Shown one piece after another: positions 23,835 to 25,868 of a stretch of 64,000 nucleotides of DNA. Numbering within the stretch: the stretch's first letter is position 1; each line of letters starts with the position of its first letter. The stretch is from Escherichia coli 042. GTDB lineage: Bacteria; Pseudomonadota; Gammaproteobacteria; Enterobacterales; Enterobacteriaceae. The notes beneath the pieces were generated by a model. It was given only the letters and a program-made list of their open reading frames with translations. It was not told the DNA's origin and ran no database searches. The DNA lies in the NCBI RefSeq assembly GCF_000027125.1, contig NC_017626.1, one strand, 5' to 3'. The translations under genes were made by a program, and so were the position numbers.

Positions 23835-24047
23835 GAAATGGCCTTACGTTTAGAAAGATGCCGACAACCGGCAAATCCTGGAAAAATTGAGTGGGCGATA
23901 TTCTATCACTCCCGCCTGATTCCTCAATGTAGTTCGGGTTGCAACCTTACGCATTATTGTTTTCGTTGACAAATTGCGCAACACGGTCTGTTTTGCGATC
24001 ATCTTGCTTAAATTTACGACGAACGAACAATTTCTTTAGAAAATGCG

Positions 24048-24075
24048 TTGACTCATTTTGAACTCTCCCTATAAT
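24048..24075 (+). promoter_or_regulatory. sigma70 promoter of the valU-valX-valY-lysV tRNA operon
   Basis: TTGACT-16 bp-TATAAT followed by GC-rich discriminator gcgactcc; first tRNA starts 18 nt downstream. Confidence 0.65.
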
Positions 24076-24092
24076 GCGACTCCACACAGCGG

Positions 24093-24168
24093 GGGTGATT
24101 AGCTCAGCTGGGAGAGCACCTCCCTTACAAGGAGGGGGTCGGCGGTTCGATCCCGTCATCACCCACCA
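24093..24168 (+). tRNA. valU: tRNA-Val (UAC)
   Basis: GGGTGATTAGCTCAGCTGGGAGAGCACCTCCCTTACAAGGAGGGGGTCGGCGGTTCGATCCCGTCATCACCCACCA; anticodon loop CUUACAA. Confidence 0.95.
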
Positions 24169-24212
24169 ACTACTTTATGTAGTCTCCGCCGTGTAGCAAG
24201 AAATTGAGAAGT

Positions 24213-24288
24213 GGGTGATTAGCTCAGCTGGGAGAGCACCTCCCTTACAAGGAGGGGGTCGGCGGTTCGATCCCGTCATCACCCACCA
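24213..24288 (+). tRNA. valX: tRNA-Val (UAC)
   Basis: identical second copy. Confidence 0.95.
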
Positions 24289-24334
24289 CTTTCTCGCCAG
24301 CTAAATTTCTTGTAACAATGTGAAGTACCGAAGT

Positions 24335-24410
24335 GGGTGATTAGCTCAGCTGGGAGAGCACCTCCCTTACAAGGAGGGGGTCGGCGGTTCGATCCCGTCA
24401 TCACCCACCA
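24335..24410 (+). tRNA. valY: tRNA-Val (UAC)
   Basis: identical third copy. Confidence 0.95.
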
Positions 24411-24414
24411 CTTC

Positions 24415-24490
24415 GGGTCGTTAGCTCAGTTGGTAGAGCAGTTGACTTTTAATCAATTGGTCGCAGGTTCGAATCCTGCACGACCCACCA
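24415..24490 (+). tRNA. lysV: tRNA-Lys (UUU)
   Basis: GGGTCGTTAGCTCAGTTGGTAGAGCAGTTGACTTTTAATCAATTGGTCGCAGGTTCGAATCCTGCACGACCCACCA; 4 nt after valY. Confidence 0.95.
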
Positions 24491-24494
24491 ATGT

Positions 24495-24521
24495 AAAAAA
24501 GCGCCCTAAAGGCGCTTTTTT
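24495..24521 (+). terminator. rho-independent terminator of the tRNA operon
   Basis: aaaaaagcgccc-taaa-gggcgctttttt immediately after lysV. Confidence 0.85.
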
Positions 24522-24609
24522 GCTATATGCGGTTTGTAAGATTGATTTTTCTTCTCAAGTTCCTTGTTCTTCTGCCGATATTACCTCGTACAGTGACGAG
24601 GACTGAACA

Positions 24610-24951
24610 ATGGCCACTATCTCTCCAACTTCAATTCCTTCCATACAAACACAGAGTAGTAACAGGGCATCAGAAGGTAGCGATGTTGCTTCACAAATTG
24701 CGCGGATAAGTCAGCAAATCATCAAACTCACTCAACAAATTAAAGAGATTGCAGACACTAGCGGCAGTGCTGAAGACAAGCAAAAACAGGCCGAATTGAT
24801 TCAGCAGCAAATCACCCTACTGGAAACACAACTGGCGCAGTTGCAAAGACAGCAGGCAGAAAAAGCGCAGGAGAAAGAGCAGCGTTTGTCTCTGAATGCA
24901 TCCCTTCCAAATCCTGTTGAAAAAACGACTCAGATCGATATCTATATCTGA
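24610..24951 (+). CDS. orphan Q/E-rich coiled-coil protein, possibly FlxA-like (113 aa)
   Basis: ORF with GAGGA SD 7 nt upstream; Ser/Thr-rich N-terminus, heptad-like Q/L/I repeats, C-terminal QIDIYI; FlxA-like call is from memory only. Confidence 0.5.
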
Positions 24952-25868
24952 TACAGCGGATCCCCTTCCCGCCCAGCCATTAGAGCACGGCCCTGGCCTC
25001 GTACCACGTCCCATAACGCTTGTGCGGCGGTGGAAAGTGAACGGTTCTTCCTGCGCACCAGCATCAACTGGCGTTCCACCACCGGCGTAATGCGCTTTAC
25101 CACCAGCGGGCTACCTTCAGGTAACGGCAGCGCCAGTGCGGGAAGAATACTAATGCCGATGCCTGCGGCTACCATCGGGAACAGCGTCGCCGGATGTCCA
25201 ATCTCCTGCACAATATTCGCCTGAATACCATTGCGCGCCAGCGCTGCGTCAATCAGCGGTCGGCTGCCTGACGCGTAATCCTGCAACACCAATTTCGCTC
25301 CCTGTAATGCCTGCCAGGGTACATAATCTTCCGCGGCCAAAGCGCTATCGCGATGGCAAAGCAAGAAGAAAGGCTCGGAAAGAATCGCTTCACATTGCAG
25401 ATCGCCCACTGGGCCTGGATCGATGACGATGCCAAAATCGACATCTCCCTGGCGAATACTTTCCATCACCCACTGCTGCGGACGATCGTGCAGGATAAAC
25501 TGAATATCTGGATAGCGGCGATGGCTTTCAGCAATGCATTGCGGAATAAGATGCGCGGAAATGGTCTGGCTGGCAGCGACCCGAACTTTTCCGCTCAGTT
25601 GTTGCCCCATACGCCCGGTATCGCGCAACGTGCTGTTAAGTTCATCCAGCAGTCGCTCAAGACGCAAAGCCAACTGCTGCCCTGCATCTGTAAGCACCAC
25701 TTCACGCGTGGTTCTGTCCAGCAGGCGAACACCAGTATGATTTTCCAGCTCCTTCACACTGTGACTTACTGCCGACTGACTCAGGCCGATACGCTCTCCT
25801 GCACGACTAAAACTTTTCTCCTGCGCTACTGTGACGAAAACCTTTAATTGTTTTAAAGAATAATTCAT
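24942..25868 (-). CDS. yfeR: LysR-family transcriptional regulator
   Basis: 308-aa ORF; N-terminal LysR HTH ([13 protein letters not shown]); recognised as YfeR. Confidence 0.88.

Follow-up and report, generated by a model that had tools for sequence, protein, structure and literature searches.

In Escherichia coli 042, a 113-aa reading frame lies between the lysine tRNA gene lysV and the convergent regulator gene yfeR, at a site where K-12 carries xapRBA and yfeN. The locus raises the question of whether this frame is a gene, how it came to stand beside a tRNA gene, and what transcribes it. Analysis of the surrounding 64,000-nt stretch (contig NC_017626.1; hereafter the window) identifies the frame as a genuine, already catalogued chromosomal gene of the FlxA family, probably transcribed as a monocistronic unit from a predicted FliA promoter (Table 1). 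The point new here is this putative sigma-28 promoter of its own.

Table 1. Features of the lysV-yfeR interval, with window coordinates
Feature	Position	Strand	Evidence and remarks
tRNA-Lys(UUU) lysV	24415..24490	+	ARAGORN; Rfam tRNA 79.2 bits; last of valU-valX-valY-lysV cluster
Intrinsic terminator hairpin of the tRNA operon	24493..24523	+	A6-GCGCC-loop-GGCGC-T6; RNAfold -19.1 kcal/mol
Segment exchanged for RtT-xapR-DUF1427-xapB-xapA-yfeN in K-12-type genomes	24531..24940	.	Pairwise junction alignments
Predicted sigma-28 -35 element TCAAGTTC (consensus TAAAGTTT)	24555..24562	+	PWM 19.5-19.8 bits; conserved in orthologues
Predicted sigma-28 -10 element GCCGATAT (consensus GCCGATAA)	24574..24581	+	PWM; 11-nt spacer from -35
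Inverted repeat CCTCGT-N6-ACGAGG	24584..24601	+	RNAfold -8.6 kcal/mol, z = -2.6; statistically weak
Shine-Dalgarno GAGGA	24598-24602	+	Spacer to ATG 7 nt; direct reading of sequence
FlxA-like family protein CDS	24610..24951	+	113 aa, ATG start; ORF list, Pfam PF14282, RefSeq WP_000201400.1
Parts of the CDS (residues): disordered Ser/Thr-rich 1-21; helix 23-49; loop; helix 54-97; disordered tail with QIDIYI end			AlphaFold2, family alignment
A6 homopolymer within the CDS	24920..24925	+	Sequence comparison with P0001 and P0002
yfeR, LysR-family regulator, convergent	24942..25868	-	ORF list, RefSeq annotation

A FlxA-family gene next to lysV

The original prediction, made from the letters alone, described the frame with its Shine-Dalgarno sequence and spacer, Ser/Thr-rich N-terminus, QIDIYI end and 10-nt overlap with yfeR, and all of these were recovered, the overlap at 24942-24951 in the ORF list. 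The convergent, end-to-end layout with yfeR is kept in all orthologous loci. The prediction had also ventured a resemblance to FlxA, a guess that is borne out by Pfam family PF14282, matched over residues 15-92 at 55.7 bits (E = 5.9e-15; curated gathering score 26.3), and by 45% identity to K-12 FlxA over 74 aa (BLASTP, E = 3e-13). PF14282 is likewise matched by all 26 aligned relatives, among which Q67 is invariant and D110 and Y112 are retained in 90% or more. The protein has the layout of the FlxA family (about 105-120 aa; an N-terminus of low complexity followed by two long helices, with (I/V)D(I/V)Y(I/V) at the C-terminus) and shares its terminal IDIY(I/V) with K-12 FlxA. WP_000201400.1 was already named 'FlxA-like family protein' by NCBI's pipeline.

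The label 'orphan' did not survive. An exhaustive search of 1.84 billion representatives, which replaced a word-indexed search with 8 matches, retrieved 89 representative clusters of relatives, and in E. coli the gene is present in roughly a quarter of complete genomes. NCBIfam gave coiled-coil noise and no model specific to the family; domain searches of the protein detected nothing for c-di-GMP, chemotaxis or transport; and the PADLOC defence models gave nothing meaningful, the single match being of coiled-coil type (PbeC, E = 0.0056, 13.4 bits). A literature search returned zero papers under 'FlxA-like', zero under WP_000201400.1 and none giving FlxA a function.

AlphaFold2 models the two helices at pLDDT 81-87 and residues 1-21 below 50, so that the protein is predicted to be a soluble antiparallel two-helix coiled-coil hairpin with disordered tails. 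The heptad-like Q/L/I/E repeats noticed in the sequence resolve into a clean heptad in helix 1, where V, I, I, I, L, I and I occupy the a/d positions and hydrophobic residues make up 88% of these positions vs 5% elsewhere. No signal peptide or transmembrane segment was found in the protein (15-residue hydropathy maximum 0.61). Foldseek returned no match in the PDB at E <=0.001, and a PDB sequence search with the family profile found just designed or generic coiled coils. The best Foldseek match, the FliJ-like type III secretion stalk protein CdsO (6wa9_M; E = 0.26, 11% identity), was judged non-specific.

Two alleles of one interval

K-12-type genomes align with the window in this region solely at 24491-24544 and from 24941 on, and in K-12 the interval consists of RtT, xapR, a DUF1427 ORF, xapB, xapA and yfeN. 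Junction alignments uphold the earlier claim of a swap of at least four genes relative to K-12 and reveal a clean replacement of the xapR...yfeN segment, whose left boundary is approximate and whose right boundary falls exactly at the yfeR stop. Among 5,426 complete E. coli genomes, 1,307 (about 24%, E. coli B and HS included) carry the FlxA-like allele and 4,099 (about 76%) carry xapR-xapB-xapA-yfeN at the same site; the two are essentially mutually exclusive. The E. coli FlxA-like gene itself is found as two or more haplotypes that differ by about 3%. The difference from K-12 amounts to an ordinary polymorphism with two alleles, whose alternation offers a convenient recombination marker for the locus. 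The reference strain K-12 lacks this copy of the gene; its presence in E. coli B and HS makes genetic tests straightforward.

The order gltX, val/lys tRNAs, flxA-like, yfeR, yfeH, ypeB, ligA recurs in Pseudocitrobacter, Kluyvera (six species with the gene at this site), Pluralibacter and more distant relatives (only 36-47% identical). No xap genes were found at the syntenic FlxA-like loci of other genera. The arrangement in the window is the widely conserved one, recurring by sequence comparison in at least three other genera, and is not an island-like novelty; the earlier claim of a difference from K-12 stands. The prediction had named as its own undoing a common conserved arrangement around an already characterised gene, a condition that applies in part: the arrangement is indeed common, but the gene, though catalogued, lacks a functional characterisation. 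The reported lack of an integrase or a duplicated tRNA 3' end holds in the ORF list and in a 64-kb search. The neighbours in the ORF list and RefSeq are gltX, tRNAs, yfeR, yfeH, ypeB and ligA, with no integrase or recombinase; the 22-nt 3' end of lysV has a single occurrence in the 64 kb at up to 3 mismatches; and no direct repeats were found flanking the segment. The conserved chromosomal home of the FlxA family appears to be the lysV-yfeR slot and not a prophage.

Two other accounts of the frame need weighing against this one. A chance opening in a low-complexity intergenic stretch would be short and biased in composition, and this ORF is both (Gln 17.7% of residues); its protein is also missing, by exact look-up, from the protein cluster collection. 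The comparative data refute this account, whose probability is negligible: the PF14282 score lies above threshold, the relatives fill 89 representative clusters, the start, Shine-Dalgarno, promoter site and C-terminal motif are all conserved, and dN/dS is far below 1 with saturated dS. The dN/dS values of 0.02-0.18 among syntenic orthologues indicate a real gene under purifying selection. Arrival in some E. coli lineages as an islet at the tRNA gene, instead of vertical retention, is unlikely, despite several features that speak for it; the donor would have been another enterobacterium, perhaps a Pseudocitrobacter-like one, with recombination within the tRNA and yfeR flanks displacing xapRBA-yfeN. 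Gene and promoter are 92-94% identical to a contig labelled 'uncultured Pseudocitrobacter' (L004), against 80-87% for the flanking yfeR, yfeH and ligA, and dS is 0.10 to L004 vs 0.55 to P. faecalis; the gene has 44% GC, its neighbours about 52-56%; it is confined to 24% of E. coli genomes; and a genome scan for exact 8-residue peptide patterns, which misses divergent copies, found it in no representative of another Escherichia species. However, the slot, with neither integrase nor duplicated tRNA end, is syntenic in at least four genera as well as in the distant relatives, the two or more E. coli haplotypes argue for long residence, and the low GC is accounted for by a Gln/Lys/Ile-rich composition. 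The exchange with L004 could also have run in either direction, and the L004 MAG may be chimeric.

A predicted sigma-28 promoter

A position weight matrix built from ChIP-seq-validated FliA sites (PMC4183435, Table 2) places its best site in the window, on either strand, directly upstream of the FlxA-like gene. This predicted promoter, TCAAGTTC-N11-GCCGATAT at 24555-24581, ends 28 nt before the ATG and scores 19.7 bits, above the runner-up (13.5) and the leave-one-out median of the ChIP-validated promoters (16.2); 0.023 such sites are expected per simulated 64-kb window. The matrix replaced a plain search for TAAAGTTT-N11-GCCGATAA with at most 3 mismatches because the single match of that search was not significant alone, at least one occurring in 27% of shuffles. 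The -10 octamer GCCGATAT is identical in the validated motAB and modA promoters, and the -35 half matches the TCAAGTCC half of the validated flgKL promoter (PMC4183435). By the rule derived from the aer promoter, in which transcription starts 6 bp downstream of the octamer (PMC2859248), the transcript is predicted to begin at about 24587-24588. The earlier suggestion to look into sigma-factor dependence thus leads, at the level of sequence, to a strong sigma-28 candidate; no sigma-70-like promoter was found in 24300-25100.

Comparison across genomes points the same way. In Pseudocitrobacter, Kluyvera, Pluralibacter and the syntenic orthologues of more distant relatives, the motif keeps its place 27-31 nt before the ATG amid diverging neighbouring bases. 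Of 19 distinct family genes from unrelated contexts, 18 carry a site scoring 8.5 bits or more within 20-45 nt upstream of the start, compared with 0.34% of 6,422 control positions; several orthologues score modestly (8.9-13 bits), and the family member L020 lacks a sigma-28 site. A family uncharacterised since 1997 yet preceded almost everywhere by a predicted sigma-28 promoter would rank among the most consistently FliA-linked of the gene families without an assigned role. FliA dependence, shown by experiment for K-12 flxA, is suggested for the gene in the window by its promoter sequence and these comparisons. Further counterpoints are carriage in E. coli B and the frameshifted copies in public assemblies, where one A missing from the A6 run gives 159-aa products (P0001 and P0002, compared with the window). 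E. coli B is non-motile, so the gene persists there although the presumed regulon is defective.

The predicted promoter stands just behind a transcriptional barrier. Three tRNA-Val genes precede lysV, Rfam finds four tRNAs and nothing else in 23900-25100, and the terminator hairpin that follows is strong (z = -5.78; 0/200 shuffles as stable by RNAfold) and also present in K-12. It isolates the FlxA-like gene from the tRNA operon and, being symmetric, could potentially act in both directions. Downstream of the -10 element, the predicted transcript start falls within the 5' arm of the inverted repeat, and the 3' arm of the repeat shares bases with the Shine-Dalgarno. Analogous leader repeats, spelled differently, occur in orthologues, with individual z-scores of -2.6 to +0.7; the hairpin counts as a side observation outside the main claim.

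Proposed role and comparison with K-12 FlxA

On the most probable account, a sigma-28/FliA-dependent class 3 flagellar promoter just past the lysV terminator would drive this gene alone, yielding a monocistronic mRNA whose leader, about 22 nt long, carries a good Shine-Dalgarno. Expression would coincide with that of late flagellar genes, after hook-basal body completion and FlgM export, a timing established by experiment for the K-12 paralogue flxA. Its product is probably accessory and, as is said of flxA, dispensable for motility. The preferred mechanism, a speculative one, is that the flagellar type III apparatus might export it as a late substrate, or that it might act as a small partner of that apparatus.

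Transcription might instead come from tRNA-operon read-through or an unrecognised sigma-70 promoter, with the sigma-28 match incidental. The short distance from lysV to the gene start (120 nt) and the non-significant plain consensus search would fit, but this is very unlikely given the strong terminator, the failure to find a sigma-70-like promoter in 24300-25100, and a sigma-28 motif whose position is conserved across genera and unrelated genomic contexts; in read-through RNA the inverted repeat would, moreover, sequester the Shine-Dalgarno. A role inside the cell in place of export is unlikely: the protein would then be a helical hairpin of the flagellar export or regulatory machinery, mimicking a FliJ/CdsO-like stalk, serving as a chaperone-like adaptor or partnering FliA or FlgM. 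The modelled two-helix architecture and the predicted co-regulation with late flagellar genes are compatible with this, as is the top Foldseek match, CdsO in complex with CdsV (probability 0.99, target-normalised TM-score 0.77). However, the E-value and identity of that match are poor, any antiparallel two-helix coiled coil matches in this way (LSD1 and designed proteins are in the same list), and Ide and Kutsukake 1997 (cited in PMC4183435) describe flxA in their title as dispensable for motility.

The export reading, put forward as a weak hypothesis by analogy, draws on an E. coli exoproteome, in which K-12 FlxA is up-regulated together with FlgK, FliD, FliC, FlgL, FlgM and FlgE (PMC6391000). 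The same table includes cytoplasmic proteins such as CheY (PMC6391000), and cell lysis together with raised expression of the regulon would account for FlxA there as well. At 42 C, where flagellar secretion is impaired, flxA showed opposite changes in protein and mRNA, the direction of the protein change being unstated in the paper (PMC6551532). The disordered N-terminus and lack of a Sec signal in the FlxA-like protein are compatible with export but not specific to it. Among known late export substrates, FlgM, FlgK, FlgL, FliD and FliC resemble it in class 3 timing, as predicted here, and in having no Sec signal, a disordered N-terminus, a helical coiled-coil core and a conserved C-terminal segment; by contrast, the FlxA-like protein has no homology to any of them and no known chaperone.

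A bolder synthesis would join three proposals: that the FlxA proteins form a sigma-28-controlled coiled-coil class for export or docking, that the lysV-yfeR copy is ancestral to prophage flxA, and that translation is promoter-selective. The conjunction is improbable. Were it true, the family would be an unrecognised class exported by, or docking onto, the flagellar type III apparatus, and the lysV-yfeR copy would be the chromosomal founder from which the prophage-borne K-12 flxA derived. An anti-Shine-Dalgarno arm upstream of the sigma-28 start would then leave only FliA-initiated transcripts translatable and silence read-through RNA from the tRNA genes.

The closest known system is K-12 FlxA itself (b1566), the founder of PF14282, which is carried by the Qin cryptic prophage. 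At 110 aa it is nearly the length of the protein in the window, to which it is 45% identical over the helical core, and it too starts Ser/Thr-rich, continues through two helices and ends in a C-terminal IDIY(V/I). Its promoter, TAAAGATT-N11-GCCGATAG, stands 23 nt before the ATG and has the same 11-nt spacer. Deletion of fliA reduces K-12 flxA expression from 280 to 2 (PMC4183435), and in a separate study flxA fell 28-fold without fliA (PMC1935009); FlxA was still listed as uncharacterised in 2024 (PMC11551758). The two genes differ in setting: K-12 flxA sits in a prophage beside relBE/hokD, whereas the gene in the window occupies a core slot syntenic across genera. PHROG 11044 matches K-12 FlxA at 1.8e-71 but the FlxA-like protein of the window at 1.4e-9, and tblastn of the latter against 50,697 phage records gave no match. 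The non-structural genes of the FliA regulon (ycgR, yhjH/pdeH, ynjH, yjcZ and modA) offer a second comparison. Their proteins bear no sequence relationship to the FlxA-like protein. Like the gene in the window, however, they lie outside the flagellar clusters behind promoters of the TAAAGTTT-N11-GCCGATAA type, and the validated modA site, TCAACTTCCTGCTTTTCCTGCCGATATT, closely resembles the promoter predicted here.

The FlxA-like gene and its family

The ORF between lysV and yfeR belongs to the FlxA family. Its product (WP_000201400.1) matches PF14282 (FlxA-like protein, Pfam) at E = 5.9e-15, with 55.7 bits vs a gathering score of 26.3, and is 45% identical to K-12 FlxA over 74 residues (E = 3e-13), confirming the guess in the original prediction that it is FlxA-like. 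The NCBI annotation pipeline names it 'FlxA-like family protein'; the same accession occurs on identical DNA of strain 118UI, and a second E. coli haplotype, WP_000201405.1, occurs in E. coli B and HS. The label 'orphan' did not survive: 1.84 billion representative proteins, searched exhaustively, yielded 89 homologue clusters at E <= 1e-3, and 1,307 of the 5,426 complete E. coli genomes carry the gene. Comparison of syntenic orthologues gives a dN/dS of 0.02-0.18, indicating a real gene under purifying selection; together with the PF14282 match and the 89 clusters, this excludes a spurious ORF. The gene evolves faster than its neighbours, as Kluyvera FlxA-like proteins are 57-63% identical vs 83-94% for YfeR, YfeH, LigA, and GltX.

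PF14282 is matched by all 26 aligned family members, which share a Ser/Thr-rich N-terminus, two helices with a short Gly/Ser/Asp loop between them, a Gln (Q67) that never varies, and a C-terminal (I/V)D(I/V)Y(I/V) that is almost invariant. The window protein is 17.7% Gln, with a clean heptad in helix 1 (a/d = V,I,I,I,L,I,I) and no signal peptide or membrane segment found. AlphaFold2, supplied with the family alignment, predicts helices at residues 23-49 and 54-97 (pLDDT 81-87), with residues 1-21 and the tail disordered. A PDB sequence search for relatives with a solved structure returned only designed coiled coils, and Foldseek gave no match at E <= 0.001. The best Foldseek match, the FliJ-like type III secretion stalk CdsO (E = 0.26), was rejected because any two-helix hairpin would return such a match.

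All descriptive claims of the original prediction were borne out: the protein reads exactly as quoted, the Shine-Dalgarno has the stated spacing, and the 3' overlap with yfeR is present. Gene order around the ORF is that of E. coli (pdeA, two tRNA-Ala, yfeC, yfeD, gltX, three tRNA-Val, lysV, the ORF, yfeR, yfeH, ypeB, ligA).

Features of the lysV-yfeR interval in window coordinates
Feature	Position	Remarks
tRNA-Lys lysV	24415-24490	
Terminator	24493-24523	strong hairpin 3' of lysV; -19.1 kcal/mol, z = -5.8
Candidate sigma-28 promoter	24555-24581	TCAAGTTC-N11-GCCGATAT; ends 28 nt before ATG
Inverted repeat	24584-24601	CCTCGT-N6-ACGAGG; between sigma-28 -10 element and ATG
Shine-Dalgarno	24598-24602	GAGGA; 7 nt 5' of ATG
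flxA-like CDS	24610..24951 (+)	ATG start; 113 aa
A6 run	24920-24925	inside CDS
yfeR	end at 24942	convergent; 3' ends overlap 10 nt, 24942-24951

The A6 run is frameshift-prone. In public assemblies, two 159-aa products (P0001 and P0002) have lost one A and read on into yfeR antisense, and a 95-aa frameshifted variant (P0007) also occurs; such copies may stem from sequencing errors in the homopolymer or from occasional pseudogenisation. The convergent layout with yfeR is kept across genera, with coding ends that abut or overlap. No terminator lies between the two genes at the window or orthologous loci, so the 3' ends of their transcripts likely overlap in antisense.

Two alleles and a conserved slot

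K-12 differs at this interval, as the original prediction stated, and carries an RtT element, xapR, a DUF1427 ORF, xapB, xapA, and yfeN. The flxA-like segment (at least 80% coverage) accounts for the 1,307 genomes and the K-12-type xapR...yfeN segment for 4,099; their sum, 5,406 of 5,426, marks them as alternative alleles of a single interval that are essentially mutually exclusive. Likeness to the K-12 type ends shortly after the lysV terminator (at about 24530-24544) and resumes exactly at the yfeR stop codon (24941), and junction alignments reveal that K-12 retains nothing of the flxA-like gene.

The interval is variable in other respects. The RtT repeat 3' of lysV is an independent polymorphism, since some genomes carry both RtT and the flxA-like gene. 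RtT-like units, each a duplicate of the lysV 3' end and terminator, number zero in the window, one in K-12 (locus L002, 2431-2556), and two in HS (locus L029, 1237-1518), independently of allele. The tRNA array varies too, reading val-lys-val-lys in strain 118UI. The xapR...yfeN allele (L002 2600-6990) comprises two deeply divergent haplotypes (identity to K-12 of at least 99% in 2,434 genomes and of 90-95% in 1,642), suggesting that the polymorphism is old or that the locus has been exchanged repeatedly.

The order gltX, val-val-val-lys tRNAs, flxA-like, yfeR, yfeH, ypeB, ligA, without xap genes, recurs in Pseudocitrobacter (two genomes), Kluyvera (six species), and Pluralibacter (one genome), and around two further relatives of the window protein, P0011 (47% identity) and P0034 (36%). 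In this comparison of E. coli with Pseudocitrobacter, Kluyvera, Pluralibacter, and the two further relatives, the window thus has the widely conserved arrangement and K-12 the alternative. The conserved home of the FlxA family appears to be this slot between lysV and yfeR and not a prophage. An island or prophage origin was rejected, given the same slot in other genera and, as originally read, a single lysV 3' end in the window and neighbouring genes without an integrase.

On one contig (L004), assigned to 'uncultured Pseudocitrobacter sp.', the flxA-like gene and its candidate promoter (637-1103 vs window 24491-24951) are 92-94% identical to the window, vs 80-87% for the yfeR, yfeH, ypeB, and ligA flanks; dS of the gene is 0.10 to this contig vs 0.55 to P. 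faecalis. From these alignments, the difference suggests inter-genus homologous exchange of this segment alone, at least once and in either direction. Alternatively, the contig may be a chimeric MAG.

A predicted family-wide sigma-28 promoter

In K-12, flxA is a classic target of FliA (sigma-28). Its ChIP-seq FliA site is TAAAGATTTTTTTGTGCATGCCGATAGT, with expression of 280 in a motile strain vs 2 in a fliA deletion (Fitzgerald et al., PMC4183435), and flxA is down 28-fold in a fliA deletion (Zhao et al., PMC1935009). A plain consensus search of the window gave one match, but at least one match arose in 27% of shuffles; since this was unconvincing, a position weight matrix was built from high-confidence ChIP-seq FliA sites (PMC4183435). 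Depending on matrix version, the candidate site scores 19.5-19.8 bits, the top of about 128,000 positions (runner-up 12.9-13.5) and above the leave-one-out median of validated promoters (16.2). Sites reaching this score occur at 0.023 per window in 300 simulated 64-kb windows. Its halves resemble validated promoters, as flgKL has TCAAGTCC and motAB and modA have GCCGATAT (PMC4183435).

The comparative evidence is stronger than the single-window search. In every syntenic orthologue the motif keeps a distance of 27-31 nt from the ATG amid diverging flanks, and the E. coli B/HS haplotype has the form ACCGATAT, which the validated ycgR and fliD promoters share (PMC4183435). With flxA's own site left out of the matrix, 18/19 distinct family genes, from unrelated contexts that include non-enterobacterial contigs, have a site scoring 8.5 bits or more whose end lies 20-45 nt 5' of the start codon, vs 0.34% of 6,422 control positions. 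Distant FlxA-family genes lie in unrelated neighbourhoods and never in flagellar clusters (L016 3001-3336, LamB/TauE/LysR; L021 3001-3330, TsaD/PlsY/FolB; L024 3001-3348, lipase/acyltransferase; L025 3001-3321, MR_MLE/SDR/LysR); each of these four is preceded, 29-40 nt from its ATG, by a sigma-28-like site of its own.

Expression by read-through from the tRNA operon or from a sigma-70 promoter is unlikely, given the strong terminator 3' of lysV, the conserved sigma-28 sites, and a search of 24300-25100 in which no sigma-70-like promoter was found. By analogy with the aer promoter, where the mapped start lies 6 bp downstream of the octamer (PMC2859248), the sigma-28 transcript should start near 24587-24588, with a leader of about 22 nt. 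The 5' arm of the leader inverted repeat straddles this predicted start and the 3' arm covers the Shine-Dalgarno. Orthologues have repeats in the same place with other spelling (CCTTAT...ATAAGG in Kluyvera, CTTTT..AAAAG in K-12 flxA), although the statistics are weak (best z = -2.6). If real, the hairpin would form only in RNA reading through from the tRNA operon.

Possible roles of the FlxA-like protein

FlxA is still among the uncharacterised K-12 genes in 2024 (PMC11551758); Ide and Kutsukake (1997), as cited in PMC4183435, reported it as FliA-dependent yet dispensable for motility. The preferred mechanism, though weakly supported and on balance improbable, is that the FlxA-like protein would be exported late through the flagellar type III apparatus or would act as a small partner of that apparatus. 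Class 3 timing, the lack of a Sec signal, and the disordered N-terminus with a conserved C-terminal tail are consistent with such a role. K-12 FlxA is also up in an E. coli exoproteome with FlgK, FliD, FliC, FlgL, FlgM, and FlgE, but the same table includes cytoplasmic CheY (PMC6391000). Likewise, at 42 C, where flagellar secretion is impaired, flxA protein and mRNA change oppositely, but the protein change is given without direction (PMC6551532). The protein may instead have an intracellular FliJ-like or chaperone-like role.

The original finding is thus real and correctly interpreted, but ordinary. The analysis adds the predicted family-wide sigma-28 promoter and the lysV-yfeR slot as the apparent conserved family home; lesser additions are the inverted repeat in the leader, the A6 run prone to frameshifts, and the local similarity to the Pseudocitrobacter contig. 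The flxA-like gene is already catalogued; it belongs to a known, functionally uncharacterised family and occupies a common locus with two alleles.
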